Positions 3,060-64,000 of a stretch of DNA of 64,000 nucleotides are shown here, in pieces (position 1 is the stretch's first letter; each line of letters starts with the position of its first letter). Origin of the DNA: Hyphomicrobiales bacterium. GTDB lineage: Bacteria > Pseudomonadota > Alphaproteobacteria > Rhizobiales > JAJFHR01. The notes under the pieces are model-generated. The model was not told the DNA's origin. It saw only the letters and a list, made by a program, of their open reading frames with translations, and did no database searches. The stretch lies in NCBI GenBank assembly GCA_021775475.1, contig JAJFHS010000053.1, positions 44,271 to 108,270 on the forward strand. The letters are read 5' to 3'. The position numbers and the translations under genes were made by a program.

Positions 3060-3070
3060 TAGTAGCTTCC

Positions 3071-4054: not shown

Positions 4055-4089
4055 AACCAATCAACACAATATGAAATTCAGGAATCTCA

Positions 4090-45439: not shown

Positions 45440-45531
45440 GCTTCACCCCGGGCCTGATTACAAAGTTATATTCTTTGTTAAGCGATAATCTTTGCACACC
45501 AGAGCGGGCGGGATCAAGGGTTGGCGCTCAT

Positions 45532-46545
45532 TTAGCTGAAATCTGCAATATACCTTCGACACAAGGCATCGGTTTCGCGACTGTATGTCACCCCCATCGA
45601 CTGGGCGAGATCGGTTTCCGAGTGCGATCCGATCCAGGCCACCAGCAGCAATCTTCGCAACATGACGAAAGTGGGGATTTCCGCTTCATCTTCTTGCGGT
45701 AAATCGATGATTTTACGATAGCCCTTGACCCAGGATTTGAGCAGGTCGGGGACTTCCGGCCGGGTTTCAAAGAACGACACCGTTGTGGCGCAATCATACA
45801 TCAGCCAGCTGAACCCACAGTCGTCAAAATCAATAACCTTGGTAGTGTCACCATCAATAAGCAGGTTTGCCAGCCGCATGTCGCAATGTATCAGACCAAA
45901 ACGCTCAGATGATTTTCCAAATTCCGCCAATCGATGCTCAATCAAATCGACGGTTTTGCCAAACAGCTCGATGCGCTCAACGTCCAGACCCATGCCATCG
46001 CGCCATCGCCCCCAATGAGGATTTGCCCCTAGAGAGGTGTCAAAATCCCAGGTAAGGCGCTCAAAACCCTGCGGCAGTTCCCACGATTTCACATGCGCAT
46101 GCATGCGCGCAGCCGTTTCTCCCAACACTTCAAAGGGTGCGCGCAAATCATCTTCTTCCTCAGAAGGCTCAATGCCGCTTTCCCATTCAAACAGCACCAC
46201 CTGGCGGGGATTAGACATGCTCGCATGGCTCACCGTTTGAATGTCTTCACCATCGAGCCCCGCTACAACTGCCGGTGTAATGGCGGTCCCGCTTGCCCGC
46301 AAGGCTTTGGCCCAGGCAAGCTCTGAAGCGATGGCGTTTTTGCTATGATATCCTTCACGATGAACCCGCAAGGCCCAGCACTGCTGTGAATGAGGAGCTT
46401 CGATCCTGTAGGTTGCATTTTCTGACAGGTTAATCATGCGGGCACTAGCACCCGCAGGCAGTGCAAAACGGGCAAGAGAGGCCTCTGCAAGATGTTGCAG
46501 GCAAATCAACTGTTCTTCGTGAGAAAGCGCGTCAAATGCAGACAT
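45532..46545 (-). CDS. APH-fold phosphotransferase (candidate amino-alcohol kinase)
   Basis: Brenner motif HCDMRLANLLID and the metal-binding IDFDDCG motif. 337 aa. Confidence 0.8.
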   Translation of the reverse strand: MSAFDALSHEEQLICLQHLAEASLARFALPAGASARMINLSENATYRIEAPHSQQCWALRVHREGYHSKNAIASELAWAKALRASGTAITPAVVAGLDGEDIQTVSHASMSNPRQVVLFEWESGIEPSEEEDDLRAPFEVLGETAARMHAHVKSWELPQGFERLTWDFDTSLGANPHWGRWRDGMGLDVERIELFGKTVDLIEHRLAEFGKSSERFGLIHCDMRLANLLIDGDTTKVIDFDDCGFSWLMYDCATTVSFFETRPEVPDLLKSWVKGYRKIIDLPQEDEAEIPTFVMLRRLLLVAWIGSHSETDLAQSMGVTYSRETDALCRRYIADFS

Positions 46546-46602
46546 AAATTGTTCCCGGCACCTTTATCTTTAACCTAAAGAATACAACGATAAAGAGCGC
46601 CT

Positions 46603-46702
46603 CACTTGACAGTAAAACATTTACATTTGACACAGCATCAGCGTTTGTCACAAGTACGCCACCGCCCTACCCTGTCAAGTTTATATCCCTATGTGTCAAG
46701 TG
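46603..46702. promoter_or_regulatory. Divergent control region with five copies of a YAYTTGACA motif at ~21-bp phasing (two on +, three on -)
   Basis: CACTTGACA 46603, CATTTGACA 46624, TGTCACAAGTA 46646, TGTCAAGTT 46673, TGTCAAGTG 46694. The outermost pair forms a perfect 9-bp inverted repeat. Confidence 0.55.
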
Positions 46703-46749
46703 CTTAAGAGGTATCTCGGGCATGCTGAAGACAATGAGAGGGTCGTCTT

Positions 46750-48021
46750 GTGAGCATCGAAAAACTGGAATTCCTGGAGCAGTCGAAAACCTTCTGGAAT
46801 CCGAACAAAACCCAGTTCTGGCAGGATGTCGGCGTTGATCTGGTGATCGACCGCCGCGAAGGTTATTGCCTCTATGACATGGATGGCAAGCGCCTGATTG
46901 ATGTGCACCTCAATGGCGGCACCTACAATCTCGGTCATCGCAATGCCGAACTCATAGAAGTCCTCAATGCCGGTGCCAAACGCTTTGACATGGGCAATCA
47001 TCACTTTCCGGCGCTCGCGCGCACCGCTCTGGCCGAAGCGCTGGCCAAATGTACGCCTGACGGGCTGCAATACACGATTTACGGTGCAGGTGGCGCCGAA
47101 GCAGTTGAACTGGCGATTAAATCCGCCCGTCACGCCACCCAAAAGCGCAAGATTGTCTCGATTATCAAAGCCTATCACGGCCACTCCGGTCTGGCGGTCA
47201 AAACCGGCGATGAGCGCTTTTCCAAGACATTTTTGTCCGAAGACACAGTTGGTGAATTTATACAGGTACCGTTCAATGACCTTGAAGCGATTGAAAAGGC
47301 TCTAAAGGGTAAGGATGTTGCCGCCATCATTATGGAAACAATCCCGGCAACCTACGGATTTCCGATGCCGCACGAGGGCTACCTGCCTGCCGTCAAAAGC
47401 CTGTGCGAACGCTATGATGCCCTGTATATCGCTGACGAAGTACAAACCGGCCTCATGCGTACGGGTGAACTCTGGGGCATCACCAAATATGGTGTCACAC
47501 CGGACATTATGGTGATTGGCAAGGGCATTACCGGCGGCATGTATCCGATTTCATGTTGTGTCGTCAACGAGCGCGCTGGCCAATGGCTCAAGCAGGACGG
47601 CTTTGCCCATATGTCAACTGCGGGTGGGGCCGAACTTGGCTGTATTGTCGCGTTGAAAGTGCTCGAAATCACCCAGCGACCCGAAGTTGCCTCCATGGTG
47701 GCTTATATCTCCGATTTCATCCGTGCAGGGCTCGATGATATTCAGGCACTTTACCCCGATTTTTTCACCGGCATTCGCCAGAACGGTGTCATTATGGGGT
47801 TGGAATTTAATGACCCAGAAGGTGCCAAGCCGGTGATGAGGCATCTTTATGAACATGGTGTCTGGGCAATTTTCTCGACCCTTGATCCCTCCGTGTTGCA
47901 GTTCAAACCCGGCATTCTCATGACCCAGAGCCTGTCTGAAGACCTGCTGGCCCGCGTCGAAGTCGCCATCGGTCTGGCGGCTAAAGAAGTTATGGGCAGC
48001 GGACGCAGAGGCAAGATGTAA
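46750..48021 (+). CDS. Class-III aminotransferase-fold PLP enzyme (candidate amino-alcohol O-phosphate phospho-lyase)
   Basis: DEVQTGLMRTGELWG, and GKGITGG with the PLP lysine. GTG start with GAGAGG upstream. The phospho-lyase role is inferred from pairing with the kinase. Confidence 0.8.
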   Translation: MSIEKLEFLEQSKTFWNPNKTQFWQDVGVDLVIDRREGYCLYDMDGKRLIDVHLNGGTYNLGHRNAELIEVLNAGAKRFDMGNHHFPALARTALAEALAKCTPDGLQYTIYGAGGAEAVELAIKSARHATQKRKIVSIIKAYHGHSGLAVKTGDERFSKTFLSEDTVGEFIQVPFNDLEAIEKALKGKDVAAIIMETIPATYGFPMPHEGYLPAVKSLCERYDALYIADEVQTGLMRTGELWGITKYGVTPDIMVIGKGITGGMYPISCCVVNERAGQWLKQDGFAHMSTAGGAELGCIVALKVLEITQRPEVASMVAYISDFIRAGLDDIQALYPDFFTGIRQNGVIMGLEFNDPEGAKPVMRHLYEHGVWAIFSTLDPSVLQFKPGILMTQSLSEDLLARVEVAIGLAAKEVMGSGRRGKM

Positions 48022-49601
48022 TGGACCAGGCCATCGCCAACCTCGTTGACATTTCCGCATCCCCCGCCGCCATGCATGCCGCAGCCGACATGGTGCTGGA
48101 ACGGGCGAGATGGGCATCGCAGGTATTTCAACGTTATGACCGCGACACAACGCTTGCCATTGCCGACGCGGTAGCAAAGGCTGCCCACGACAATGCGGCA
48201 AAATATGGTGATTGGGCAGTTAAGGAAACCGGCTTTGGCGTAGCTGATCACAAGACGCTAAAAAACCAACTTACCGCTAAGCCTCTGGTTGATTATTATC
48301 GCGATCGAGATTTTGTTAATCCGAGATTTGATGCCGAAAAAAATATTATCGAAGTGCCCAAACCCGCCGGTGTGGTGTTTGCGCTTGCGCCCTCCACCAA
48401 TCCGATTTCAACCATCTACTTCAAGGTTTTATGTGCCCTGATGACCCGCAATGCCATCGTCATCAGCCCGCATCCCGCCGCCCGTGAATGCTCCGTTGAT
48501 GCCGTCAACACATTGATAAAAGCCGCCGAAGATGCCGGCGCACCGGAGGCGGTAATTCAGGTCATAGAGCATCCCACTCTGGCGCTAATTGATGAATTTA
48601 TGGGCTCGGAAAAAACCAATGTCATTCTCGCCACCGGCGGCAGTGCCATGGTGCGGGCAGCGTACTCATCCTCCAACCCGGCCATTGGTGTCGGCCCCGG
48701 CAATGCACCGGTTTTTGTCGAGGCAAGTGCTGATCTGAAACAGGCGGCTGCCATGATTGTCGAGAGTAAATCATTCGATAATTCAGTTTTGTGCACCAAT
48801 GAATCGGTGCTGATCACCCTGGCGGAAATATCTCAAGCGCTTTTGCGCGAGCTTGGCCGCAACAAATGCCATATCTGCAAACCCGACGAAGTTGAATTGC
48901 TGCGCCGCTATCTGTTTCATGATCGCGGCTTTAACGTCGAAGCGCTTGGCCGCGATGCTACATGGATTGCCGAACAAGCCGGGTTCAAGGTTCAGCGCAA
49001 CACCAAAATCCTGCTCACGCCCATAGATAAAATTGGTGTCGGTGAAGTATTGTCGCGCGAAAAACTGTGTCCGGTACTAGGCTATTATGTCGCCACCAGT
49101 GTAACCCAGGCCATAACTCAGGCCCGCGCCTTGTTGCGCTATACCGGAGCGGGACATTCGGCTGCCATCCACTCAAACGACAATCAGACAATTATGGATT
49201 ATGCCGCCGGTGTCGAAGTTTACCGCGTTATTGTCAATGCACCGTGCAGTCAAGGTGCTGCCGGATTTGCCACCAACCTTGCACCTACCTTCACCATTGG
49301 CACCGGCTATTTTGGCCGCTCCTCAGTGGGCGAGAATGTCGGCCCACAGCATCTGGTAAACTGGACCCGTATCGCCTGGAACAGCCAGGCCAGTGGCAAT
49401 ATTAATGATTTTCAAACAGCAAGGCTCAACCACCGTGGCAAGTTGCCAAAAGCACCTGCCGATGGTGTGCCGGGACAATCGCGGGTAAGACGCGAGGTGT
49501 CTGATAACTCTCCCCGGACACCGGCGCGCACCGACCCTGAATTACGCGAAGAAATTCGCCGCATTATTGCCGAAGAGCTGCGCTCGGCGCTGAAGGATTG
49601 A
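48021..49601 (+). CDS. CoA-acylating aldehyde dehydrogenase (EutE/PduP family) with a C-terminal encapsulation-peptide-like helix
   Basis: ALDH fold with the catalytic Cys in FDNSVLCTNES. A Pro/Arg/Ser-rich linker is followed by ELREEIRRIIAEELRSAL at the extreme C-terminus. TAATG overlap with the upstream gene. Confidence 0.85.
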   Translation: MDQAIANLVDISASPAAMHAAADMVLERARWASQVFQRYDRDTTLAIADAVAKAAHDNAAKYGDWAVKETGFGVADHKTLKNQLTAKPLVDYYRDRDFVNPRFDAEKNIIEVPKPAGVVFALAPSTNPISTIYFKVLCALMTRNAIVISPHPAARECSVDAVNTLIKAAEDAGAPEAVIQVIEHPTLALIDEFMGSEKTNVILATGGSAMVRAAYSSSNPAIGVGPGNAPVFVEASADLKQAAAMIVESKSFDNSVLCTNESVLITLAEISQALLRELGRNKCHICKPDEVELLRRYLFHDRGFNVEALGRDATWIAEQAGFKVQRNTKILLTPIDKIGVGEVLSREKLCPVLGYYVATSVTQAITQARALLRYTGAGHSAAIHSNDNQTIMDYAAGVEVYRVIVNAPCSQGAAGFATNLAPTFTIGTGYFGRSSVGENVGPQHLVNWTRIAWNSQASGNINDFQTARLNHRGKLPKAPADGVPGQSRVRREVSDNSPRTPARTDPELREEIRRIIAEELRSALKD

Positions 49602-49604
49602 TTT

Positions 49605-50225
49605 ATGGCTGATTTGCGTTCCTTCATATTCATCGACCAGTTGCAGCCGCAAACCATGTCTTATATGGCATCGTGGATGCGCGGCTCCCTGCCGCGCGCG
49701 CATGTGGCAGCCCAGATCATTGAGGTGGCTCCGGGTCTGGATATCGAAAACCTCACCAATATTGCTCTCAAGCACGCTGGTGTTCACGCCGGAATTCTGG
49801 TGGTCGAGCGCCAGTTCGGCTATCTCGAGTTTCATTCCCGCGATACGTCTGCTGTAAGGGAAGCTGCACAAGCGGTGTTAGATAATCTTGGTGCTGAAGC
49901 AGATCATGCCATGGCGCCGAAGATACTCGGATCCAAAATTGTCACGCGTATCGATAACCAGCACGCTTTTTTGATCAACCGCAACAAGTTGGGTTCTATG
50001 GTTCTGGGCGGAGAATCGCTGTATCTTCTCGAAATACAACCGGCATCTTATGCAATTCTGGCAACAAATGAAGCCGAGAAAGCCGCCAATATCAAGGTGG
50101 TTGATTATCGCATGATCGGTGCCAACGGGCGGGTTTATCTCTCAGGCAAAGAATCCGAAATCCGCAGCGCGCGCGAAGCCGCTGAAGCCGCCCTTGGTGG
50201 TTTTGATCAGGGAGAAGCTGCATGA
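49605..50225 (+). CDS. BMC-T shell protein (tandem BMC domains)
   Basis: 206 aa containing two BMC-like halves (EVAPGLDIENLTNIALKHA ...; ILATNEAEKAANIKVV ...). Confidence 0.8.
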   Translation: MADLRSFIFIDQLQPQTMSYMASWMRGSLPRAHVAAQIIEVAPGLDIENLTNIALKHAGVHAGILVVERQFGYLEFHSRDTSAVREAAQAVLDNLGAEADHAMAPKILGSKIVTRIDNQHAFLINRNKLGSMVLGGESLYLLEIQPASYAILATNEAEKAANIKVVDYRMIGANGRVYLSGKESEIRSAREAAEAALGGFDQGEAA

Positions 50226-50635
50226 CCACAGATGCCGTCAGATCCCTGATCCGAGAAGTGCTGGCCGAAGAACTGGGGCGCGTTGCCCGCGAGCGCTCAA
50301 CAACCAAAGAAACTGTCTCGATACAGACTAATAAGGATTTGCAGGCGCTGGTTCTCCATATAGTGGAAATAGCCCGCGACAAATCCATGCGCGACCGCAT
50401 CATCGCAGGAGATCATGTTTTTGTGCTTGAGACCCCGTCGGGTGTATCCGTGGCAAAAACCCCTGCGCCAAACGCCAGCGACGTGGAGCAGATAACAAAA
50501 GGTTTTTTGTCCGAGCGTGCAATAGAAGCCCTTCCCGCCAATACCCGTGTGGTGCAGCTTGGACACGGAGTGCGTTTTACACCGCTTGCCCGCGACCGGT
50601 TGAGACAGCGGAAGATAACAGTTGAAAGGATATAA
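50222..50635 (+). CDS. BMC-locus hypothetical protein with an N-terminal encapsulation-peptide-like amphipathic helix
   Basis: 137 aa. The N-terminal AVRSLIREVLAEELGRV shares the (I/V)(L/I)AEEL core with the AldDH C-terminus. ATGA-coupled to the preceding shell gene. The C-terminal domain is unrecognised. Confidence 0.6.
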   Translation: MTTDAVRSLIREVLAEELGRVARERSTTKETVSIQTNKDLQALVLHIVEIARDKSMRDRIIAGDHVFVLETPSGVSVAKTPAPNASDVEQITKGFLSERAIEALPANTRVVQLGHGVRFTPLARDRLRQRKITVERI

Positions 50636-50637
50636 TT

Positions 50638-50877
50638 ATGGTCAGAGGACGCGTTACCGGCAGACTTTGGGCAACCAAGCGCATTGACACACTCCCCCAG
50701 GGCGCTTTGTTGAATGTAGAGCTGGAAAACGGCACACAGATCATCGCACTGGACCCGCTTGGCTGTGGCGAAGGTGAAGATGTGCTGGTTACTCAAGGCT
50801 CCGTTGCCGCCGGTTATTTTGACGATATCAAAGCCCCCATCGATGCGCTGATTATCGGCTCCATCGATGCCGACTAA
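50638..50877 (+). CDS. BMC-P pentameric vertex protein (EutN/CcmL/PduN family)
   Basis: 79 aa. MVRGRVTGRLWATKR ... ALDPLGCGEGEDVLVTQGS ... IDALIIGSID matches the EutN family pattern. Confidence 0.9.
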   Translation: MVRGRVTGRLWATKRIDTLPQGALLNVELENGTQIIALDPLGCGEGEDVLVTQGSVAAGYFDDIKAPIDALIIGSIDAD

Positions 50878-50917
50878 TAAACATTACGCCATTTTTTAAT
50901 CAAAAGGAGAAAGACAA

Positions 50918-51196
50918 ATGTCAAACGAAGCAATAGGAATGATTGAGACCAGAGGGTTCGTAGCCGCTTTAGCTGCCGCTGACGCCATGGTGAAAGCAGC
51001 GAACGTAAAAATTGTCTCGCGTGAAGAAGTCGGTGCCGGTCTGGTATCCGTGGTTATTCAGGGCGACGTCGGCGCGGTTAAGGCTGCCACCGAAGCCGGT
51101 GCTGAAACTGCCGGACAAGTTGGTGATCTGATATCCGTTCATGTGATTCCACGCCCGCACACAGATCTCGGCAAACATTTTACGGCTAAAAAATAA
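50918..51196 (+). CDS. BMC-H hexameric shell protein (PduA/EutM-like)
   Basis: [27 protein letters not shown] ... GDVGAVKAA is the canonical BMC-H sequence. GGAG RBS. Confidence 0.95.
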
Positions 51197-51217
51197 CCTT
51201 TTGATAACCGGATTTCC

Positions 51218-51240
51218 GCCGGACCCAAATAAGGTCCGGC
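51218..51240 (+). other. Intercistronic stem-loop GCCGGACC-CAAATAA-GGTCCGGC after the BMC-H gene
   Basis: 8-bp perfect GC-rich stem, 22 nt after the BMC-H stop, with no T tail. Confidence 0.4.
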
Positions 51241-51289
51241 TGCTGAAGGCGCAGCAAAGGGATGGCTTTGCCAAAATGAGTGATTACCA

Positions 51290-51913
51290 ATGACTGAACT
51301 ACGCGTTTACCTGCCCATAGAGGACCTGCAACCGCAGTTTGCAGCTTACATGGCCACGCCAACGCGCGCGCGTGGCTATCCGCCATTTGTCGGTGACCAC
51401 AGTCTCATTATTGAAGTGGCACCCGCACTGGCCATCCATCGCGTCACCGACCTGGCCTTAAAGGCTGCACCCGATCTTGAACCGGGAATATTGTTCACAG
51501 AGCGTCATTTTGGCCTGCTTGAATTGCACTCGAGCAAACGTGAAACGGTTATGGCAGCCGGGCAGGCAATTCTCAAAGGCATCAATTGCAAAGCCGAAGA
51601 CCAGCTCAAGCCGCAAATCCTGTTCACCGATATCATCGAAAACCTCTCCGACCAGCATGCAGTCATCTACAATCGCATGCGTGAAGCCTCAATGATCCTG
51701 CCCGGTCAATCCTTGTTGCTCTATGAAATGGCCCCGGCCCTGTTCGCCGCCATGGCCGCAAATGAGGCCGAAAAATCCGCCCCCGACATAACGCTGGTGG
51801 ATGTCCAGATGATGGGGGCATCCGGCCGTATTTCCATGGCGGGAAAAACCGCCGACCTGCAAGTGGCGCAAAAATGCATTAGCCAGGTTCTTGGCGCTGT
51901 TGCCGGCAGGTAG
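51290..51913 (+). CDS. BMC-T shell protein (tandem BMC domains), paralog of 49605-50225
   Basis: 207 aa. LRVYLPIEDLQPQFAAYMA is parallel to LRSFIFIDQLQPQTMSYMA, and AMAANEAEKSA is parallel to ILATNEAEKAA. Confidence 0.8.
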   Translation: MTELRVYLPIEDLQPQFAAYMATPTRARGYPPFVGDHSLIIEVAPALAIHRVTDLALKAAPDLEPGILFTERHFGLLELHSSKRETVMAAGQAILKGINCKAEDQLKPQILFTDIIENLSDQHAVIYNRMREASMILPGQSLLLYEMAPALFAAMAANEAEKSAPDITLVDVQMMGASGRISMAGKTADLQVAQKCISQVLGAVAGR

Positions 51914-52355
51914 CGGCAACAGCTGCATTTTTCAGACCGCCGACGCTATTTCGAGCCACTATATTGAATTAGGCTGACATCTATTTTCACGGCATGTCTT
52001 GCTTAAACCAAACCCCTCCGCCATCAAAGCGCAGCACAACCTGTTGTTACAGGTTGATTTTCCGGGATTCACGATGGATTCACGCAATCTGAAAGATTGT
52101 GTTCAATGAGCACAAGGCAGTTGCCCTGCCCCGGAGGAAAATGCAACACCTTATAGACTGCCGGATTAATTGAACCTGCCAGGCGTTCGTCTGCAAGTTT
52201 CCGCATCGATTGTTAAACAACTCATGATCCTAATCAAAACCACCCTCCCTAGGCACTGGTTCTCCCGCCAGATGATGAATGGTCATGGGGTCCCGTTTTC
52301 AGAATTTTCAGAAAGTTTTCGATTATGCCGTTAACGTGTGATGAAATAAAAACTA

Positions 52356-53738
52356 TTGAAGGGCTGGGGATTACAGGAATTGTCTGAAGTACACCAAACA
52401 GAGCACATGCATCCGCCATCGAATTTTTTTCTAAACTGCGAGAAGCATTTGGCAGAAACTTCGCAGATGCGGTTTCAGGATCAGCAGGTTACCAATTTTT
52501 TGAGTACACTCGATTATTTGTCCGACAAAAAGCAATCCGCTGCTTCATTCCAAAATCGCAGCGCTTTGCTGAGCCTCGCTTCGCAGCTCAAGGATATATT
52601 TCTCCTGCCAAGCCGGCACCCCTCAAAAGCCAGCTTTTTTGGCGCGATATTAGAGCCTGAAACTTTTGGTTTTTCTGGCATTAATGACACGCCGGTCAGC
52701 GTTAGTGGGCGTGGGCACACTATTCAACAGGCGTTTGAGAGCTGTATTGGCGAAGCTGCCGAATATCTGTCGTTTTTGAAAAGAGCAAATGATCCCCTTA
52801 TCACTCTGAAAAACAGCGATGATGGCTTGCAGCCAGACGAACGCGTTTGGGTACAGGCTGCATTGGGGCTTGGCAGGCATGATGATTTTGGGGCAAGCGA
52901 CCGGATACAGGCCGGTTCACTGATTGATGAGCGTACCGTCTGGTTTCCCAGTGAATTGGTTCTAATGCAACCTGACAAAGGTCGCTGGACACCGCGGCCT
53001 GCTGAAAGCAATGGTGTGGGCGCTGGCCGGGATTACAATCACGCCGTTTATTCCGGCATGACAGAAGTGATAGAGCGTGATGCCTTTGCCTTGTGGTGGT
53101 TTGGTGAAAAACCTGCATATTCCTTAAACCCGGAAGTTGAAAACAATAGCAAATTCAAAGAATTTATTCGCGATTGCCGCAGCACCAGCGATCGCCAGAT
53201 ATGGTTTCTGGATATTTCCAGCGAAATTTCCGTACCGGTAGTTGCAGCTTTTTCTTCCCGACCCGATGGCAGCGTTGTCGTCGCTGGCTTTGCAGCCGAC
53301 CCCGATCCAATGATCGCTGCACAAAAGGCGTTCCTTGAAATGTGCCAGATGGAAATTGCCCAGGAAATTTCGATAGCCAAGCTCGAGTACTATGGTGAAA
53401 AGCACTTGAGTGCACAAGATCGCACCTGGCTAAATCGCCATAAAAACCTCTCCGTCAAGAAGTACCCCTTGCTGATCGAAAGAAAATCAGCCATTCGCCC
53501 CCTTTTGGCACCATCGGCTGATCCTCATAACAGGGTCATTGAGATGCTGGATCAATCCGGTTTCACCCCCTTCGTCGTCGACCTCAGCCGAGCAGACCTA
53601 AACATACCCGTCGTTCGCGTTCTCGTGCCTGGATTACAATCGGCAAAAGCCGACTGGATAACTCCCAGGCTCAAAAAAATTGCGCGCAAGACCGGTGCGG
53701 ATTATTGCGGTTTTGAAAACAAACTCTCCCCCATTTGA
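52356..53738 (+). CDS. YcaO-domain protein (ATP-dependent amide-backbone activating enzyme family); start uncertain
   Basis: YcaO signatures GRGHTIQQAFESCIGEAAEYLS and ESNGVGAGRDYNHAVYSGMTEVIERDAFALWW. Candidate starts are TTG 52356, ATG 52407 and ATG 52467, and none has a clear SD. Confidence 0.75.
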   Translation: MKGWGLQELSEVHQTEHMHPPSNFFLNCEKHLAETSQMRFQDQQVTNFLSTLDYLSDKKQSAASFQNRSALLSLASQLKDIFLLPSRHPSKASFFGAILEPETFGFSGINDTPVSVSGRGHTIQQAFESCIGEAAEYLSFLKRANDPLITLKNSDDGLQPDERVWVQAALGLGRHDDFGASDRIQAGSLIDERTVWFPSELVLMQPDKGRWTPRPAESNGVGAGRDYNHAVYSGMTEVIERDAFALWWFGEKPAYSLNPEVENNSKFKEFIRDCRSTSDRQIWFLDISSEISVPVVAAFSSRPDGSVVVAGFAADPDPMIAAQKAFLEMCQMEIAQEISIAKLEYYGEKHLSAQDRTWLNRHKNLSVKKYPLLIERKSAIRPLLAPSADPHNRVIEMLDQSGFTPFVVDLSRADLNIPVVRVLVPGLQSAKADWITPRLKKIARKTGADYCGFENKLSPI

Positions 53739-53807
53739 TTACTTTGGTAAATTGTGGAACAATTGATTTTTGTTCAGTTTAGTTGAATTAATTTATTCGG
53801 GGGGTGG

Positions 53808-55844
53808 ATGGGTACGCTGGCATCTATCCAGAAAATTGCTGATGGTGAGCGATGGACAGTCCGATTAATTGATGGTTTCGCACTGCAAGGCGCAAACGGG
53901 GAACAAATATCAATCAAAAACCGCAAGGCACGCGGCATCTTTGCTTATCTGGTCCTCGGTCAAAATCAAATCGAAAGCCGCGAACGCATCGCTGGTTTAT
54001 TGTGGGGTGAGCGAGAGGAAGACCGTGCGCGCGCATCACTTAGACAATGCCTCAAACAACTTCGTGATCAATGTGACAGGGCGGGCTTTGATGGATTGCA
54101 GATCGAGCGACAGGAAGTTCTCCTCAACAGAAATTCCTTTCACCTCGACCTCAACTCTATTGCCAATGATCTCAAACAAGGCCGCGTCAGCGACATACTG
54201 ACAAATGGACCGTCAATCCCCGAACGTATTCTTTATGGATACGAGGCACTGGACGAATCTTTTGGCGCCTGGATCCATGTGGTTCGGCAGCATTGGCATG
54301 ACCGGTTGAATAGTGGCTTGCAAACCATCATGAAAAACCAGGATTTTAGCGCATCTCAAACTGCCCAGGCAGCTGAGGCGCTGGTTAGAATTGACCCAAC
54401 CCATGAAGAAGCCTATCGCCATTTAATTCGTTACTACGCTAACATGGGAAATGTACAGGCTGCTTTGAAGCAATATAAAACTCTCTGGGACCATCTCGAC
54501 ATTGAATACGATATGGAACCGGACAGCGAAACCATCGATCTCATCGGAGAAGTCAAGAGCGGGACTTATGTAATATCAAACCACATTGTGGCAACAGCAA
54601 CTCCGTCGGGTAAATCTTTGGGTACGCCGAAAGAAAGGTTGCCGGTCATTGGCATTCGAAATTTTGTTGCCGCTGGCCCGTGGCGGCGCGATAAGTTTCT
54701 GATCGATGGTTTCAGGCGCGAAATGGTAGCGGCACTCATTCGATTTAGAGAATGGTCGATAGTTGAGCAGGGCCAGTCATTAAATGATTTTGATCCGAGC
54801 GCTGATGATATCGCTTCACAGATTGCAACCGACTATTCACTGGAAGGCTCCTACCTCGAAGATGGTGACAGTGTTCATATGGTTATAACCCTCAAAGATA
54901 CCGGGCACTCCCGGTATGTGTGGAGTGAACGCCTCGACCTGACGCAAGAAAGCTGGTTCAAAGCCCAACGGCTCATTGTTCGCCGTGTGGCAATATCTCT
55001 CAATGTTTACCTGTCGGTTGACAGGATGCAGCGGACAACCGGGCAGTTTGCAGTCTCGTCCGATATTTACGGCCGCTGGCTCCTGGGCCAGGAATTGAGT
55101 TATCGCTGGCGGCTTGAAGATGAAGAAAAGGCCGAAGATATTTTCCGCTCTATCATCGATGACAGCCCTCAATATGCGACCGCCTACAGCAGCCTGGCAC
55201 AGATCATGAATTCCCGTCATCACATCCATCCAGGCACTTTTCGCTCCGATGAACAACACATCGAAGCTTTGGAGCTGGCGAAAAAAGCCGTCAGAAATGA
55301 CCCGCTTGATTCGCGAACACAGCTTTCACTGGCCTGGTCCTATGCCATGAATGCCAGTTACGACAAAGCTATCCTCAATTATCGGCTCGCCGGCCAGTTA
55401 AATGAAAATGATCCGTGGACACTTGTTTCCAGTGCGCTTGGTCTGGCTTATTGTGGCCAACCGGACGAGGCCGCCAGCTTAAACGCACAAGCTCTATCCG
55501 TTGGCCTTAGCTCCTCTCCGCTGCATCTGGCCTATCGCGCCGGTATCCATTTTATATGTGGGGATTATACGGCCTGCATTGAAGCCGCCAGCCAATCGAA
55601 AGATACAATTGGCTATGTATCCGCCTGGAAATCAGCGGCGCTGTCCCACTTGAAACGCCGCAACCAAGCCCGCGCTGAAGCGCAAAAATTCTTGGCAGTT
55701 ACGCGAGGAAACTGGCGGGGCAGTTCAAATCCGAGCGACGCGGAAATAGCCAAATGGCTGTTACACTGCTTTCCGATCCGTGATCAAAAGGTTTGGAAAC
55801 GCCTGCGTGATGGTTTGGCACTCGCAGGCGTTCCGGTCGAATAA
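53808..55844 (+). CDS. SARP/BTAD-type winged-helix transcriptional activator with a C-terminal TPR region
   Basis: N-terminal wHTH (RKARGIFAYLVLGQNQIESRERIAGLLWGE), a BTAD-like helical region (HEEAYRHLIRYYANMGNVQAALKQYKTL), then TPR-like repeats. 678 aa. Confidence 0.7.
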   Translation: MGTLASIQKIADGERWTVRLIDGFALQGANGEQISIKNRKARGIFAYLVLGQNQIESRERIAGLLWGEREEDRARASLRQCLKQLRDQCDRAGFDGLQIERQEVLLNRNSFHLDLNSIANDLKQGRVSDILTNGPSIPERILYGYEALDESFGAWIHVVRQHWHDRLNSGLQTIMKNQDFSASQTAQAAEALVRIDPTHEEAYRHLIRYYANMGNVQAALKQYKTLWDHLDIEYDMEPDSETIDLIGEVKSGTYVISNHIVATATPSGKSLGTPKERLPVIGIRNFVAAGPWRRDKFLIDGFRREMVAALIRFREWSIVEQGQSLNDFDPSADDIASQIATDYSLEGSYLEDGDSVHMVITLKDTGHSRYVWSERLDLTQESWFKAQRLIVRRVAISLNVYLSVDRMQRTTGQFAVSSDIYGRWLLGQELSYRWRLEDEEKAEDIFRSIIDDSPQYATAYSSLAQIMNSRHHIHPGTFRSDEQHIEALELAKKAVRNDPLDSRTQLSLAWSYAMNASYDKAILNYRLAGQLNENDPWTLVSSALGLAYCGQPDEAASLNAQALSVGLSSSPLHLAYRAGIHFICGDYTACIEAASQSKDTIGYVSAWKSAALSHLKRRNQARAEAQKFLAVTRGNWRGSSNPSDAEIAKWLLHCFPIRDQKVWKRLRDGLALAGVPVE

Positions 55845-56030
55845 AACACCGTGAACGTGGCTCTTGGGTGATTGTTATTTAACGCCACAAAATGTCTCGA
55901 TGCTGCGACGGAATCACGTTGCGTTCACGGCACATGCTCAATGATCGGCTCAGGTATCACGGTTGGGAACTGGGTTGAAAATTTCTACCCGGTAGCCGCT
56001 GCAATAATCTTCTCAATACGGGACTAAGGC

Positions 56031-56285
56031 ATGTCTATAGAAGAATGGCTTTTTGAGTATCTTGAGATACCACAGGAATTTCAGGATTCAAACTTGATCC
56101 CAGCCAACAAGAAAACCCGGCAGCAATGGCAGCAAGCTGTTGAACAACTGGTATTGTACTTGCGCAGCCGGTTTGATCAGTTGACGTTCGGATTGTCTGA
56201 TGCAGAAATTTCCGTTCACTACCACTTGCCTGTTCACCGATTTGTAAAACTGGTGGAACAAAATCTAGGATTTCCTGATGAATAG
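56031..56285 (+). CDS. Small hypothetical protein (84 aa)
   Basis: ORF only, with no recognisable motif. Coding status is uncertain. Confidence 0.35.
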   Translation: MSIEEWLFEYLEIPQEFQDSNLIPANKKTRQQWQQAVEQLVLYLRSRFDQLTFGLSDAEISVHYHLPVHRFVKLVEQNLGFPDE

Positions 56286-56468: not shown

Positions 56469-58274
56469 ATGCCCAAAACGTCAAAAAACGCCGCTCAAGG
56501 CTCTGATGCCGGTGCTCTCCTGTTTACTTTTGCAATCATTACCGACACCCATATCCGCCCGCCGGAAGGTGATCTGTCCTCGCCTTTTGCAGTCAATAAA
56601 CTGGCTAACGCGCGCGCGCGTTATGCCGTTGCCGCCATCGCTGCGCATCAACCAGATTTCACCATTCACCTCGGCGATATGGTACACCCACTTCCGGCAC
56701 TGCCAAGTTACGGACCGGCGGCCGAAGAAGCCTTGTCGATCCTGGAACCGATTTCAAATGGCCTGCGTTTCGTGCCCGGCAACCATGATGTCGGTGACAA
56801 ACCGATGCCCGCCACCCCGGCAGGACCGGTGGAGGATAGCAGCGTCAGGCTTTACGAAAAATATTTCGGCCCCAGCTATTACAGCTTCGATCATCAAGGC
56901 GTACACTTCGTCACCGTCAATGCTTCTTTGTTCAATTCAGGAAGCGTTCTTGAGCAGGAACAACGCCAGTGGCTTGAAAACGATCTGGCCAAAAACACCG
57001 TCCAGCGGACAGTTCTGTTTTCCCACTACCCACCATTCATCGACCACAAATCCGAACCCTCTCATTACGACAATTACGGTGAACCCGGCCGCTCGTGGCT
57101 GCTCGGCTTGGTTGAACGTTATAATGTGGAGGCAGTTTTTTCCGGTCATGTGCACCAGTTTTTCTATAACCGGATTGCCGACATGAAGCTTTATTGCCTG
57201 CCACCGACGAGCTTTACCCGGCAGGACTACAGCGAGCTTTATGGCATCGGTCCCGCCGATCAGTATGGCCGCAATGATGAGGGCAAGTTCAGCTATGCGC
57301 TGATTGATATCTTCGAACACGGTCACCGGCTCAAGGTCTATCCAACCCAAGGACACTGTCTCGAAAAGGGGGCAGAAATTACGTTAGACACGCCGCCCGG
57401 CAGGGGCACGCCAAACCCGGTTACTGTGCATCTGCGCCATGGCTGGGCGCGGTCGATGGACATGCCTTATAATGGCCCAATGGAGGAGTTTTCGCGCAAA
57501 CGCGCGCGCAACGACTATTCCTTGTTACGCCTGTGGCAGATGGGTATCAGCCGCATAAGAACACCATTGAGCGATCTGCTTGATGAAGAATACGGCCCGC
57601 GCGTTCAGGATTTTCATGCAGCGGGATGCAGCTTCACATTTTTTTGTGCCGGCGTGCCATCGAACGATACGTGGCAGCAATGCTGCGACAATGCCCATCT
57701 GATTGATGCGGTGGAACTGGTGTCCTGTGTTGCTGACCTGTCAGACATAGGCGATGCAATCAAGGCCTTTGATCCGGCAACCGGGCCTGAGATACATCTG
57801 GGAAAATTCCATTCCTCTGCTGACGAGCCCAAACACGATACAACCTTCGCCCATTCGGTGAGCTTCGGCTTTAAATGGGATGACCGCGATGCTCTGCTAC
57901 CGGCGTTAAAACAGTTTGATCCCAGCGGCAGAATCAAGGCAATCGTTTTTCAGATAAATCTTGACGATGATCTTGCCACGCGCCTCGATGACATGGATAG
58001 CCTGGCACAAAGCGCGGGCCTGAAGGTCATCGCCAATATCCGCTTCGCCAATGTTAATCCAGCAATTACCAGTTTTGACGACGATATTATCGCCGCCCGC
58101 GTATCTCAGGCCATCGAGCTTGAACCAACTCTTGCACACACAGGCCTGCAATTTGATACGTTCGCCGACATCGATCGCGGCTATCATCCACGCCATGGAC
58201 TGATTGACGGGCGCTATAATTTCCGCGCCGCTGGCCGCATATTAATGGAAAGGTTCAATCGAACTCAGGACTGA
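56469..58274 (+). CDS. Calcineurin-like metallophosphoesterase fused to a ~300-aa C-terminal domain of unknown function
   Basis: The N-terminal half carries motifs DTH (ITDTHI), GDMVH, GNHD and GHVH. The C-terminal half is unrecognised. Confidence 0.7.
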   Translation: MPKTSKNAAQGSDAGALLFTFAIITDTHIRPPEGDLSSPFAVNKLANARARYAVAAIAAHQPDFTIHLGDMVHPLPALPSYGPAAEEALSILEPISNGLRFVPGNHDVGDKPMPATPAGPVEDSSVRLYEKYFGPSYYSFDHQGVHFVTVNASLFNSGSVLEQEQRQWLENDLAKNTVQRTVLFSHYPPFIDHKSEPSHYDNYGEPGRSWLLGLVERYNVEAVFSGHVHQFFYNRIADMKLYCLPPTSFTRQDYSELYGIGPADQYGRNDEGKFSYALIDIFEHGHRLKVYPTQGHCLEKGAEITLDTPPGRGTPNPVTVHLRHGWARSMDMPYNGPMEEFSRKRARNDYSLLRLWQMGISRIRTPLSDLLDEEYGPRVQDFHAAGCSFTFFCAGVPSNDTWQQCCDNAHLIDAVELVSCVADLSDIGDAIKAFDPATGPEIHLGKFHSSADEPKHDTTFAHSVSFGFKWDDRDALLPALKQFDPSGRIKAIVFQINLDDDLATRLDDMDSLAQSAGLKVIANIRFANVNPAITSFDDDIIAARVSQAIELEPTLAHTGLQFDTFADIDRGYHPRHGLIDGRYNFRAAGRILMERFNRTQD

Positions 58275-59715
58275 CACCGGGCGGCATGGAAAAACCCAGG
58301 TCACCGCGTTCAATTACCGCAGCGCGCCCGCCTTTTTCCCGCAACAATTTTTCCTGCGTTTGTTTGGCCTCAGCGTCAACCGCATGCGGGTCACAAATCC
58401 TGAACAGCTCGGCTGTCAACTCGTCGACCACCGGTTTCGCATTGGCATCTTCTGCCAGATCATTGAGTTCTTCAGGATCGCTTTCAAGGTCGAAAAGCTG
58501 TGGTGGATAATGGGCGTAATAAATCAGTTTATAGGGCCCTTTACGGATCATGTAGGCCGCCGTCTTCGAGCCCATGGCGTGATATTCCGAAAACACCGCG
58601 CGGGTTTTGCCTTCACCATTGATCAACCGCATGACATCAATACCGGGATGGTCATCGCTGAGGGTCTCGGGCGATGTCTCACCGGCGCATTCCATAAAGA
58701 AGGGATAAAGATCGAGCAGATTGGCCGGTGTATCAACCACTGTGCCAGCTGGAATATCGGGACCGCTCATGATCAGCGGCACGCCGACGGATTCCTCCAG
58801 CATGGTCGATTTTCCCCACAGCCCGCGCGCACCCAGATTGTCACCATGATCGGACGTATAGACAACGCGGGTATCGCCCTTCAGTCCCGAGGCATCCAGC
58901 GCTTGCAACACGTTGCCGATATTATGATCGAGAAAACTGCACAATCCGAGGTAGCCCGCCTGGGCGCGCTTAACCATATCGGCATCTTCAAAAAAATCGT
59001 CATAAGCAAATGAAGCACGGTAATCCTCAAGAAAAGGATGCAGCGGCTGATCGCGCAGGTGGTAGAGTTTAGGTTCCGGTAAATCCTGATCATAATAGGG
59101 ATAAAAAAATTCCGGCGGTGCGGTCAGCGGAAAATGAGGACAGACGAAGGACACAAACAATACCCAGGGCTTATCGCTGTATTTACCGGCTTCCTCGCGC
59201 AGCCACACCTGCGCCCGCGCCGCGATTTCGCGATCATAGGTGGTGTAAACAGACTCGCCCGGTCCCGCCATACACGCCATCTTGTAGGCACCGCCGCGCT
59301 TTGGCATGTCTTCATCGCGCACCAGACCGAGCAGATCGCCCTCGCCATCAATGACGTGCATGCCGATCTGTTCGTCGGAAAACCCGTTATCATCATCGCT
59401 GGAATGGAAATGCAGCTTGCCGATTGAAACCACCTGATGGCCGCGGTCGCGTAACAAAGCATGCCAGTTGGGCTGGGAGCCATCAAACGGCATGGCATTA
59501 TCCCACAGACCGATCTGATGGACATATTTGCCGGTTGCAAAAGCTGCCCGCGCTGGCACACAGACCGGGCACGGCGTATAGGCGGCGTCAAACCGCGTGC
59601 CGGTTTGCGCCATGCGGTCAAGGTTCGGCGTCTTGACAATATCATGACCATAACACCCGGCCAGCTTTCGATTGTGCTGGTCCGACATGATGATGATAAG
59701 ATTGCTCGGTTTCAT
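58255..59715 (-). CDS. Sulfatase (formylglycine-dependent, Cys-type)
   Basis: IIIMSDQHN N-terminus and a C-x-P-x-R site (PVCVPARAAFATG). The 3' end overlaps the convergent 56469 gene by 20 nt. Confidence 0.85.
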   Translation of the reverse strand: MKPSNLIIIMSDQHNRKLAGCYGHDIVKTPNLDRMAQTGTRFDAAYTPCPVCVPARAAFATGKYVHQIGLWDNAMPFDGSQPNWHALLRDRGHQVVSIGKLHFHSSDDDNGFSDEQIGMHVIDGEGDLLGLVRDEDMPKRGGAYKMACMAGPGESVYTTYDREIAARAQVWLREEAGKYSDKPWVLFVSFVCPHFPLTAPPEFFYPYYDQDLPEPKLYHLRDQPLHPFLEDYRASFAYDDFFEDADMVKRAQAGYLGLCSFLDHNIGNVLQALDASGLKGDTRVVYTSDHGDNLGARGLWGKSTMLEESVGVPLIMSGPDIPAGTVVDTPANLLDLYPFFMECAGETSPETLSDDHPGIDVMRLINGEGKTRAVFSEYHAMGSKTAAYMIRKGPYKLIYYAHYPPQLFDLESDPEELNDLAEDANAKPVVDELTAELFRICDPHAVDAEAKQTQEKLLREKGGRAAVIERGDLGFSMPPGVSPEFD

Positions 59716-62003
59716 GATTTCCTGAATATATAGATCGGGCTTGACCAGGCCTGATTGCCATCCTCCTGGGTCACCCTGACATAAAGAGCATTATCGCCCG
59801 TATCGCGCAGATTGATTTTTTCCTCAATCGTCATTTCCATATGAGCATTTTCATCGGGCAGACGGAACAGCCGTAGCTTGCGGCCAAGTTTGCCAGCATC
59901 AAACACGATATCTTCAAAACCGATATCAGCAATATTGATGCTTTGTGAAACCACGGGCGTGTGAATTTTTACAACTCCCGCCTCCCCATCTTCAAGCCAG
60001 GCGTCAAATCCGCCATAATTCCCGGTGGTAAGCGCCTTCCATTGCAAATTATTATCACTTGTCTGATCGAGTGTTTTGTCCTCGTTGAAAAAGTTTATGC
60101 CGCTCGCCTTGGTCACGCGATTGCCGCTAAACTCCGCCTCGCCATCCCAGATCACCTGGCGGAAACGACCGCGATATTCCGCCCCTTCCCAGATCACCCG
60201 GATGCGGTTTCCCAACTCGTCCGATGTGTAGGGACGGTGGGTCGACACATGTTCAAGGCCATTAAAAATATCAATCCGCTCAATCGGTGCCGATCCGGTT
60301 ACATGAACCTGAAGTGATACGCCCCCTGTCGGCAGATGCACGATATCCCCCATCATCGCCTCGCGCGAGGCTCTACCTTGCACATCGCCAAGGGCAGGAT
60401 CATCGTGAAAAAGTTCGCCCTCCTCACCAAAACGCGCATTAACGTCAAGGATCATGCGGTTACCGGTGGTGCCGTAATGATGGCGTTTACGGTAACAGTC
60501 GAAAATTGCAGCCCGTGTCAATTCTGAGGTAAGAAAACAGGTAAGCCCGCCAATAGCGCCAAATTTAGCGGAGCCGGGATAGCTTGCACCGGGCCTGCCC
60601 TTGTGGCCATCGGAATTGCAGACAACACCCATACGGTAGCCCATCTCAAGGGCATCATGCAAAATCCATTCAAATGTTCCCCACGACGAATGTACTTCAA
60701 CAGCGGTCTCGACGCGGCCGTCATGGGCGACTTTTACATCAGCGTAGCGCCCACCACAATGCGCCAGACAGACTGCATCCTCGCCGTTCTCGATCAGTTT
60801 TTCAAACAATTCGCCAGCCGTGCCACAATCAGTATCGGCATCGCTGAGGTCGTTGATGAGCGCATGCGACGAGCGGTAGATCGGCCTGTCCTCAGTCATG
60901 TAAAACACGTTGCGGTCACCACCGAGGAATGTATTTCCCGACCATTCATATCCCGGCAATGTAACAAAACTGCCAGACGCATTGAACTCGCCAATCAGGC
61001 GATTGAGTTCGGCCCAGAATTCTTTGGTGATCTGAAAATCATTGCCCTGATGGCCGGTGACATCGACAAACGCCTTGTCGCGGGCAAATTCAAGATACTC
61101 ACGTGCACTGCCAGTGCCGATGGTCTCTTCGCTCTGGCCATGTACGTCACCCCAGAAGTGTAGCAACTGGTCCGGCACCGGCTCAACAATGCGGATGGGA
61201 TTGCATTTGGCCAGCACGCCACCAGCTTCATCCAACACTTCGATGTTGTATATTCCCGGCTCATCTGCCATGAGCCCCTCAATAACCTGCGCAAACTCGC
61301 CCGGACTAAAAGACACACTTTGCGCCAGGCCCGGCAGAGCGGGCGTGCTGCGCAATTTTACCTTTGTATCGATCTTGTCACTCGGATTACCCCATTTGTC
61401 CTCTGCCTTCAGGCACAGCCGGAAAGGCTGGCCCACCGGGTGCATCGTCGGTGCAACCGCACGCCACGTCACCGGCGGCCCTGAGACGATGGAGATTTCC
61501 GGCTGCTTGGGCACGGGAGCATAGGTATAGGTGGCAATGGCATCAACAAGAACGCGAAACTCAAACGTATCTTCGCAAAACGTCTGCAACCGCATGCCCG
61601 GTGAGCCGCCACTGCGCTCACCAAATACGATGGTGATCGTATCTCCTTCTTTCATGAAGCCATTGACGATTTTGATATAAAGCGTTCTGTCCCACGGTCG
61701 CACATTGCCCTTGGGATCATAGCGCACCTCAAGCTTGGCATTGTTGCTGGCGGTAACAGTGGTATAGCCCGGCGCTGTGGGATCATCGAACTGGGGGTTG
61801 GTTTGATCAGAAGCAAATCGCGATACGATTTTAATGCTGCCGCTGTCGTCGATGCCGTAAAAACCGGCGGTATAAACAAGGGTAAAGGTTTCCCATGAAC
61901 CCGCCTCAATCGCACCCGATGGTTCAATGGTCGCAGTCCCTGAAAGTTCCAGCGGAACATTTCCTGACAGATTACCCAGAAACTGGTTTTTGCTTGCCTC
62001 CAA
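59712..62003 (-). CDS. Large hypothetical protein (763 aa): beta-rich N-terminal domain plus a putative metal-dependent hydrolase-like core
   Basis: FWGDVHGQSEET and GHKGRPG segments suggest a PHP/DUF3604-like metallohydrolase, which is unverified. ATGA-coupled to the downstream sulfatase. Confidence 0.4.
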   Translation of the reverse strand: MEASKNQFLGNLSGNVPLELSGTATIEPSGAIEAGSWETFTLVYTAGFYGIDDSGSIKIVSRFASDQTNPQFDDPTAPGYTTVTASNNAKLEVRYDPKGNVRPWDRTLYIKIVNGFMKEGDTITIVFGERSGGSPGMRLQTFCEDTFEFRVLVDAIATYTYAPVPKQPEISIVSGPPVTWRAVAPTMHPVGQPFRLCLKAEDKWGNPSDKIDTKVKLRSTPALPGLAQSVSFSPGEFAQVIEGLMADEPGIYNIEVLDEAGGVLAKCNPIRIVEPVPDQLLHFWGDVHGQSEETIGTGSAREYLEFARDKAFVDVTGHQGNDFQITKEFWAELNRLIGEFNASGSFVTLPGYEWSGNTFLGGDRNVFYMTEDRPIYRSSHALINDLSDADTDCGTAGELFEKLIENGEDAVCLAHCGGRYADVKVAHDGRVETAVEVHSSWGTFEWILHDALEMGYRMGVVCNSDGHKGRPGASYPGSAKFGAIGGLTCFLTSELTRAAIFDCYRKRHHYGTTGNRMILDVNARFGEEGELFHDDPALGDVQGRASREAMMGDIVHLPTGGVSLQVHVTGSAPIERIDIFNGLEHVSTHRPYTSDELGNRIRVIWEGAEYRGRFRQVIWDGEAEFSGNRVTKASGINFFNEDKTLDQTSDNNLQWKALTTGNYGGFDAWLEDGEAGVVKIHTPVVSQSINIADIGFEDIVFDAGKLGRKLRLFRLPDENAHMEMTIEEKINLRDTGDNALYVRVTQEDGNQAWSSPIYIFRKS

Positions 62004-62106
62004 TTCACTCTCCTTTAGTTTGTTGCCCGGTTCAGGCGCATACGCTGCCGGACTAATTAAATCAACATCGCCTGGTTAAAACTGATTTCGTTTAAGCCCG
62101 CGCCAC

Positions 62107-62970: not shown

Positions 62971-62979
62971 GATATTCTC

Positions 62980-63882: not shown

Positions 63883-64000
63883 CGTGCCTGCATCCCCCAT
63901 TTGCGGACCGTTAGGCTCTCGATTTTGTTGAAGACAACAGTTTCAACCACAACCCCCACAAGAATGACCATGAACAATCCGGCAAACACATAAGCGATGC
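63879..64000 (-). CDS. ABC transporter permease, paralog (3' end only; continues beyond the window)
   Basis: The minus-strand frame is open to the window edge. The C-terminus ...WGMQAR parallels ...WGMQR of the downstream permease. Confidence 0.6.
   Translation of the reverse strand, partial: IAYVFAGLFMVILVGVVVETVVFNKIESLTVRKWGMQAR

Follow-up and report, generated by a model that had tools for sequence, protein, structure and literature searches.

In a 64,000-nucleotide stretch of a Hyphomicrobiales bacterium genome (contig JAJFHS010000053.1 of assembly GCA_021775475.1, positions 44,271 to 108,270; hereafter the window), a gene for a YcaO enzyme (Y) is followed by a gene for a one-component regulator (B), and no recognised partner of YcaO chemistry is encoded beside them. 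Comparison with related genomes indicates that this pair is probably the surviving half of a conserved four-gene cassette, Y-B-S-P, from which a microhomology-mediated deletion has removed S, a small protein that is the probable substrate, and P, a haem peroxidase. The cassette is widespread in alphaproteobacteria and apparently undescribed, and the comparison accounts for the orphan look of the YcaO enzyme in the window. The features at the centre of this argument are:

52356-53738, plus strand: Y, longest open reading frame (ORF), 460 codons from a TTG, with the YcaO core at residues ~117-430
53808-55844, plus strand: B, one-component regulator of 678 aa, assigned by Pfam, alignment to AfsR and EmbR, and a structure model
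55845-55850, no strand: deletion junction, where ~2.39 kb with S and P is missing as compared with two related loci (L006 and L007) and collinearity breaks
56031-56285, plus strand: orf84, a small conserved gene with the motif AEISVHYH, kept in the window and preceded by a candidate operator (Box 2, below)

A conserved cassette and its deletion in the window

Searching 5.8 billion proteins, we found about 75 homologues of Y (34-76% identity), mostly from marine Alphaproteobacteria, and 80 loci came from a scan in which each GTDB species was represented by a single genome. These and the loci found earlier were scored by BLASTP and by the C-terminal motif of S, and 67 of them, the window included, had sufficient flanking sequence to be evaluated. 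In the great majority (57/67) Y was accompanied by B, S and P; five loci had B and S, four had B only (among them the window), and a single locus had none of the three. B thus adjoins Y in 66 of the 67 loci, and S is present in 62. The original prediction had suggested a survey of ortholog neighbourhoods for conserved small ORFs, and such a survey yields S (~130 aa), together with P.

The arrangement is preserved over large distances. In all five distant loci whose contigs were read (L001-L005, 37-45% identity), the YcaO gene is followed by a gene for a ~680 aa BTAD/TPR protein and then by two convergent genes, one encoding a hypothetical protein of 127-163 aa (S) and the other a protein of the animal haem peroxidase family (P); the flanks of these loci are mutually unrelated, and transposases or an integrase are common in them. 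The typical order is Y and B on one strand, converging on S and P, with P outermost, on the other, and in the marine clade orf84 is also found beyond P. Hosts include Bradyrhizobium, Roseibium, Nitratireductor, Acetobacteraceae, Hyphomicrobiaceae, Stappia, Mesorhizobium, Inquilinus and Sneathiella. Two plasmid copies are annotated in RefSeq: that of Paroceanicella profunda reads YcaO-like, hypothetical, hypothetical, 'peroxidase family protein', and that of Phaeobacter inhibens groups YcaO, peroxidase and an S-like gene side by side on one strand, with B converging on them. Full-text literature searches found no paper on this cassette or on a YcaO enzyme with a haem peroxidase, and the cassette proteins matched no PADLOC defence model.

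The window carries Y, B and orf84 and lacks S and P, so that it does not hold a full cassette. How the two genes were lost can be read from close relatives. Locus L007 (GCA_024278055.1) is collinear with window positions 45000-55844, through the bacterial microcompartment (BMC) locus, the YcaO gene and B, at 86% nucleotide identity; after B it carries S and P, and then rejoins the window at 55842. L006, likewise at about 85% nucleotide identity, is arranged alike, and there short repeats, AAAACACC and AAAACAAACC, flank the segment missing from the window, while the window junction reads GAATAAAACACC joined to GTGAACG. The junction together with the repeats in L006 is the signature of a microhomology-mediated deletion. 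An uncultured Hyphomicrobiales (L009), 92.8% identical to the window over 11.6 kb, has the identical junction. In a further collinear relative, L008, only the YcaO gene is intact: the first ~50 and last ~30 nt of B are fused, and of S only the last ~12 nt are left. Because S and P hold this position in every distant clade, the four-gene state is ancestral and the two-gene state derived.

No trace of S or P was found in the 64 kb window by tblastn or by a six-frame scan for the C-terminal motif of S. The earlier reading that the known YcaO partners and a precursor are missing nearby was therefore correct: no E1/ThiF, RRE, TfuA or FMN dehydrogenase gene occurred among the scanned flanking ORFs of the window (Pfam, NCBIfam), nor did a conserved small ORF that might stand in for S adjoin Y there. 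The orphan appearance of Y is a secondary state, since the genes of its probable substrate and co-enzyme were deleted, and the deletion has left Y with no cognate substrate gene in cis. Eight homologous loci likewise showed no E1-like/Ocin-ThiF/RRE partner among their Pfam-annotated neighbours, and no TfuA gene was found in the window or in the cassette loci examined.

The small gene orf84 may be a fifth member of the cassette. It has no Pfam or NCBIfam match, and its homologues, detected by tblastn, lie in L009, L006, L010 (49%), L001 (48%), L011 and L003 (36%); in the complete cassettes of the marine clade the homologue sits just past the start of P, on the opposite strand. Its ratio of non-synonymous to synonymous substitution rates (dN/dS) as compared with L009 is 0.34.

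Other rearrangements were seen at these loci. In L006, alone among the relatives, a gene for a 969 aa protein with Trypsin_2 and Endonuclease_NS domains (1684-4593) stands between the BMC locus and ycaO, and is not in the window; this insertion and other indels mark the site as a rearrangement hot spot. A Rhizobiaceae metagenome-assembled genome (L074, 11175-14115) shows another route of cassette decay, with B cut to 538 aa and followed by an insertion sequence (rve integrase) gene.

The cassette proteins and the candidate operators

Y matched the Pfam family YcaO (PF02624) over profile positions 1-324 of 325 (E 3.9e-53; 181.3 bits against a cut-off of 25.7), bearing out the YcaO motifs first read in its 460 codons. 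Its true start is probably downstream of 52356, the candidates being an ATG at 52407 and a TTG at 52449; the identical database protein P0001 has 429 aa and an annotated start 31 codons downstream, at 52449. In the AlphaFold2 model (pLDDT 90.1, pTM 0.91), which has the YcaO fold, the core is preceded by a short, helical, family-specific N-terminal extension of ~100 residues (about 20-110), and the C-terminus of the family is short and conserved, ending in SPI. The Mg/ATP motifs GEAAEY (E133, E136) and EVIERD (E237, E240, R241) are invariant in 33 homologues and align with the corresponding motifs of TruD and LynD; we take these residues to be the counterparts of E75/E78 and E199/E202/R203 of E. 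coli YcaO. Every family-invariant residue is kept in the window, and the concern that the ATP-binding residues might be degenerate is thereby removed.

The original prediction had also proposed placing the enzyme among the YcaO types. A profile built from the 33 homologues, searched against the PDB, was closest to TruD (3.3e-49), LynD (1.5e-47) and MusD (2.9e-38), followed by the YcaO proteins of M. jannaschii (6.5e-27) and M. kandleri (3.3e-21), and E. coli YcaO was the weakest relative (9.8e-5, 24 bits, over 24 residues only). Foldseek searches with the model gave the same ranking, with LynD at E 5e-21 and M. jannaschii YcaO at a target-normalised TM-score of 0.78. The best NCBIfam match was the SagD family (TIGR03604; 142.8 bits), the archaeal thioamide equivalog methan_mark_1 (TIGR03266) reached 98.4 bits against its cut-off of 365, and the generic YcaO kinase domain 89 bits. 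As judged by sequence and fold, Y belongs by descent to the azoline-forming lineage, yet it falls outside several of the criteria that define cyclodehydratases of thiazole/oxazole-modified microcins (TOMMs).

S has no Pfam or NCBIfam family match and is named 'hypothetical protein' in databases, where its close homologues sit on contigs of complete cassettes. Its most conspicuous feature is its tail: 69 S ORFs end in R-(I/V)-(G/A)-(D/E)-Y-(T/S)-x3-C-x-stop, with the Cys always penultimate. Among 11,352 ORFs, this ending occurred only beside cassettes, at 66 loci, as a single copy apart from three loci that carry two in tandem. In the most divergent S proteins (L089 and L091) the invariant core narrows to G-x-Y-x4-C-x at the carboxyl end, and upstream of the tail further motifs are conserved (WGxLVKxWA, RLPPK and YP(L/M)PxFY). 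These properties point to S as the probable substrate of the cassette.

Within the peroxidase-cyclooxygenase superfamily P is a divergent protein. The Pfam match covers only its central third, and the Bradyrhizobium protein falls under the cut-off; Q109, H113, R220 and H328 are invariant, and align with the motifs of lactoperoxidase and myeloperoxidase as YLGQLxAHD (distal Gln/His), DPRNDDN (distal Arg) and FRFGH (proximal His). In the P consensus YLGQLxAHD, Ala stands where we take the animal enzymes to have the Asp of the covalent haem link. In an Acetobacteraceae-like subgroup, in which the order is B converging on S and then Y, a DAO-family FAD oxidoreductase adjoins Y (L038, 11341-12462; L041, 11481-12689) and no peroxidase was detected in these two loci. 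The DAO-type enzyme may be a replacement of the oxidative partner, and these loci are compatible with such a role for P.

The protein next to Y, described at the outset as a 678-aa SARP-like activator with TPRs, is well described by that label, to which a CadC-like sensor half can be added. Pfam recognises BTAD (3.1e-10), Trans_reg_C (weak, 6.5e-4) and several TPR families in B. Residues ~8-255 form a SARP domain, consisting of an OmpR-type winged helix-turn-helix (wHTH) and BTAD, and residues 8-264 align with the SARP domain of AfsR, with EmbR matching too; in the model (pLDDT 84.9) an alpha/beta subdomain (~280-400) and a TPR-like helical domain (~405-675) follow. The C-terminal half finds its best fold match in the CadC sensor domain (E 2e-7, target-normalised TM-score 0.68). 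The alignments and the model thus characterise B as a SARP-type regulator with a CadC-like/TPR sensor half. Read by eye, with no predictor, the sequence shows no evident hydrophobic segment that could span a membrane, which makes B probably a cytoplasmic protein, in contrast to CadC.

Candidate operators of B were found in the window as follows:

52065-52084, plus strand: Box 1, GGATTCACG-AT-GGATTCACG, a tandem direct repeat of 11-nt period lying upstream of ycaO; candidate SARP operator
55910-55929, plus strand: Box 2, GGAATCACG-TT-GCGTTCACG, 11-nt period, oriented towards orf84
55856-55873, minus strand: degenerate remnant of the box facing the P promoter, CGTGGCT-cttg-GGTGATT in the window as compared with CGTGATT-N4-CGTGATT in L006 and L007

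The box pattern matches at exactly two places in the 64 kb window, and shuffled sequence gives an expectation of 0. Box 1 is conserved in L006-L009 and Box 2 is also present in L006, L007 and L009; the box facing P is degenerate in L009 as it is in the window. Beyond these close relatives, tandem TCACG/CGTGA repeats with an 11-nt period lie upstream of Y and of P, each facing its gene, in genomes that include Bradyrhizobium, Inquilinaceae and Roseibium, and oppositely oriented pairs of boxes upstream of P also occur in L001, L020 and L082. Across 81 loci, TCACG-N6-TCACG was 43-fold denser upstream of Y and P than elsewhere (89 sites in 72 kb as compared with 41 in 1.43 Mb; Poisson p ~1e-109), and it was present in 56 of the 81. 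A scan for sigma-70 promoters gave three sites, fewer than the 5.2 expected, and was uninformative. SARP boxes are direct repeats with an 11-nt period, and because the boxes have the architecture expected of such operators, we argue that B is a cassette-specific regulator; the tandem TCACG repeats are probably its operator, as predicted from their sequence and position.

YcaO clusters of alphaproteobacteria appear to be accompanied by regulators of this type more generally. On plasmid pR132502 of R. leguminosarum WSM1325 (L090, 5896-10146), a 47-aa ORF, a YcaO gene and a TfuA-like gene lie downstream of a B-like BTAD/TPR regulator of full length (24% identity), and it is this B-like gene upstream of a YcaO-TfuA cluster from which the wider association is drawn. 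The label 'trifolitoxin synthesis, TfuA', carried by a B homologue in a metagenome-assembled genome, was considered and set aside as a probable mis-annotation: B has no Pfam TfuA match, and in Rhizobium the true TfuA-like protein is encoded by a separate 247 aa gene adjoining YcaO.

The analysis establishes gene content, synteny, the deletion, the enrichment of the boxes, the intact catalytic residues of Y and, as set out below, purifying selection. From these features we infer the identity of the substrate, the chemistry and the binding of DNA by B, as follows. B would sense a signal and activate the promoters of ycaO-B, P-S and orf84 through the tandem TCACG boxes. Y, depending on ATP, would phosphorylate or adenylate a backbone amide close to the C-terminal end of S, most likely so that the penultimate Cys is cyclodehydrated and becomes a thiazoline. 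P would then carry out a peroxide-dependent oxidation, either of the azoline to an azole or, as a crosslink or oxidation, at the invariant Tyr. In the lineage of the window, the deletion took S and P, and what stayed behind is Y, B and orf84 with a pair of boxes.

Selection on Y and B and alternative readings

Y and B have been maintained since the deletion, as the substitution rates show purifying selection. In the comparison of the window with L009, the two genomes without S and P, Y has a dN/dS of 0.18 and B one of 0.22, both significantly different from neutrality (p 3e-10 and 3e-15); as compared with the complete cassette of L007 the values are 0.17 and 0.11, and those of flanking housekeeping genes are 0.02-0.10. 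The synonymous divergence (dS) behaves differently in the two comparisons: across 52449-55844, Y and B differ from L007 with dS of 0.72-0.85, about twice that of the flanking genes (0.27-0.45), whereas their dS relative to L009 (0.15-0.17) lies below that of the flanks (0.17-0.45). This contrast suggests that cassette alleles recombine independently of their flanks.

Several observations weigh against seeing in the pair the remnant of a substrate-modifying cassette. Purifying selection on Y and B that have lost S and P is unexpected for a functionless remnant, and is the main point left unexplained. A PxPxP C-terminus and an E1/RRE partner are typical of azoline-forming YcaOs; the Y family has neither, and its score with the SagD model is below the cut-off of 219.25. 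S is conserved along its whole length and could be a folded partner protein instead of a substrate, a copy of S and P may possibly lie in the genome outside the visible 64 kb, and no experiment or publication was found that links the cassette proteins. The persisting selection keeps alive the view that Y and B are a self-sufficient module, in which Y modifies another peptide or protein encoded elsewhere, or B itself, and S-P is an optional add-on. All catalytic residues of Y are kept, and two more loci (L059 and L069) have Y and B with neither S nor P. This view must nevertheless contend with the presence of S and P in 57 of the 67 evaluable loci, with the sister genome L008, in which the same locus is decaying, with the degeneration of the P-facing box in the window and in L009, and with the lack of an alternative conserved small ORF beside Y in the window, and we regard it as unlikely. 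The minimal modifying module with an unknown substrate, as first proposed, therefore stands in part: the peptide- or protein-modifying type looks right, the caution over the substrate was apt, and the two-gene composition does not hold, as relatives add S and P. A different role for B is also conceivable, namely that it is not only, or not mainly, a transcription factor and recruits S for Y through its TPR/CadC-like domain, in place of an RRE/E1 protein. Peptide binding is common among TPR domains, no neighbour is more faithful to Y than B (66/67), the Y and B ORFs abut or overlap in L036, L045 and L062 (by longest-ORF calls, whose starts are uncertain), and a B-like protein also accompanies the Rhizobium YcaO-TfuA clusters. 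However, the N-terminus of B is a canonical SARP DNA-binding module, the Rhizobium gene lies upstream of the precursor, YcaO and TfuA genes, a position frequent for regulators, and the conserved 11-nt-period repeats upstream of Y and P mean that regulation alone accounts for the linkage; recruitment by B is in our judgement rather improbable.

That Y is a housekeeping enzyme of the E. coli type (a RimO/S12 accessory factor), or is linked to the BMC genes, is a reading to which we give next to no weight. Some JGI homologues are automatically named 'ribosomal protein S12 methylthiotransferase accessory factor', and the pair does physically adjoin the BMC genes, as first noted: it lies directly after a BMC domain protein (50918-51196) and a CcmP-like protein (51290-51913), both shell genes. 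Yet E. coli YcaO is the weakest of the PDB relatives, the cassette occurs in unrelated contexts, on plasmids and beside transposases, and a terminator-like hairpin separates the BMC operon from the ycaO unit:

51896-51923, plus strand: terminator-like hairpin at the end of the CcmP-like gene, 10-pair stem with seven GC pairs and a T-rich tail

On these three grounds, both the housekeeping reading and a functional BMC link were rejected. Because distant cassettes sit in unrelated contexts, the adjacency of Y-B to the BMC genes is incidental.

The neighbouring genes are described here for completeness. Positions 44375-51913 hold the BMC locus, with an AraC-type regulator, an APH-family kinase, a class-III aminotransferase-family enzyme, an aldehyde dehydrogenase, BMC-T, EutN, BMC-H and the CcmP-like protein (Pfam labels taken from the collinear L007), a gene set which we take to resemble RMM-type microcompartments for the utilisation of amino alcohols (aminoacetone or 1-amino-2-propanol). 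On the other side, 56469-63900 holds a metallophosphoesterase, a sulfatase, a DUF3604 protein and further minus-strand ORFs (62107-63900); the corresponding genes of the collinear L008 include a TauD-family dioxygenase and ABC-transporter components (BPD_transp_1, ABC_tran), from which the block looks like a cluster for the utilisation of organosulfur compounds or sulfate esters. It appears unrelated to the YcaO cassette.

Returning to the Y-B-S-P cassette and its deletion, a bolder extension can be offered only tentatively: the cassette may be an unrecognised class of ribosomal peptide or protein modification, in which an azoline-type YcaO and a haem peroxidase together make, at the C-terminus of a ~130 aa protein, a structure derived from Tyr and Cys (a thiazole with a Tyr-Cys crosslink, or a protein-derived cofactor) under the control of a SARP/CadC-like sensor acting through the tandem TCACG boxes, with a separate, selected function of Y, B and orf84 in the window. 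YcaO enzymes are known to pair with E1/RRE proteins for azolines and with TfuA for thioamides, or to act on their own (amidines, peptidase activity), and a conserved association with a haem peroxidase and a new precursor-like family would represent a new partner logic, and probably new chemistry, for the YcaO superfamily. As the cassette is found in cultured, tractable bacteria (Bradyrhizobium, Nitratireductor sp. XY-223, Roseibium marinum, Oceanibacterium hippocampi, Paroceanicella profunda and Phaeobacter inhibens), a direct test of the hypothesis is feasible, and the full cassette, Y-B only and Y only form a natural deletion series for the study of cassette decay.

Comparison with known systems

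The closest known relatives of Y are the azoline YcaOs, that is, LynD and TruD of cyanobactins, MusD of muscoride and SagD of TOMMs. They are its best matches in sequence and fold, they share the Glu/Arg motifs for ATP and Mg, and the candidate substrate of the Y family has an invariant Cys near its C-terminus. Unlike them, Y has neither an E1-like/RRE domain, whether fused or separate, nor an FMN dehydrogenase or a PxPxP C-terminus; its partner is a haem peroxidase, its candidate substrate, at ~130 aa, is conserved over the full length, and in the window the genes for both have been deleted. In standing alone, with no E1 partner, Y resembles the TfuA-associated thioamide YcaOs (those of McrA thioglycine and the thioamitides) and the stand-alone YcaOs such as that of bottromycin, and a B-like BTAD/TPR regulator also flanks the YcaO-TfuA cluster on R. 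leguminosarum pR132502; the cassette loci examined, however, have no TfuA. The archaeal thioamide YcaOs are more weakly similar to Y (6.5e-27 and 3.3e-21) than LynD and TruD are, and the methan_mark_1 score is below its cut-off.

P of the related loci keeps the distal Gln/His, distal Arg and proximal His of lactoperoxidase, myeloperoxidase and peroxidasin, from which it differs in being highly divergent and, in the window, in being absent. B, for its part, combines traits of two regulator types. With the SARP regulators AfsR and EmbR it shares the OmpR-type wHTH and BTAD module, and the candidate operators of the cassette are direct repeats of the 11-nt period, but it lacks the NB-ARC ATPase of AfsR; with the one-component regulators of the CadC/HilA type it shares a sensor half resembling the CadC sensor fold, but unlike CadC it is probably cytoplasmic. 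From the known members of both types B differs in being alphaproteobacterial and tied to a YcaO cassette.

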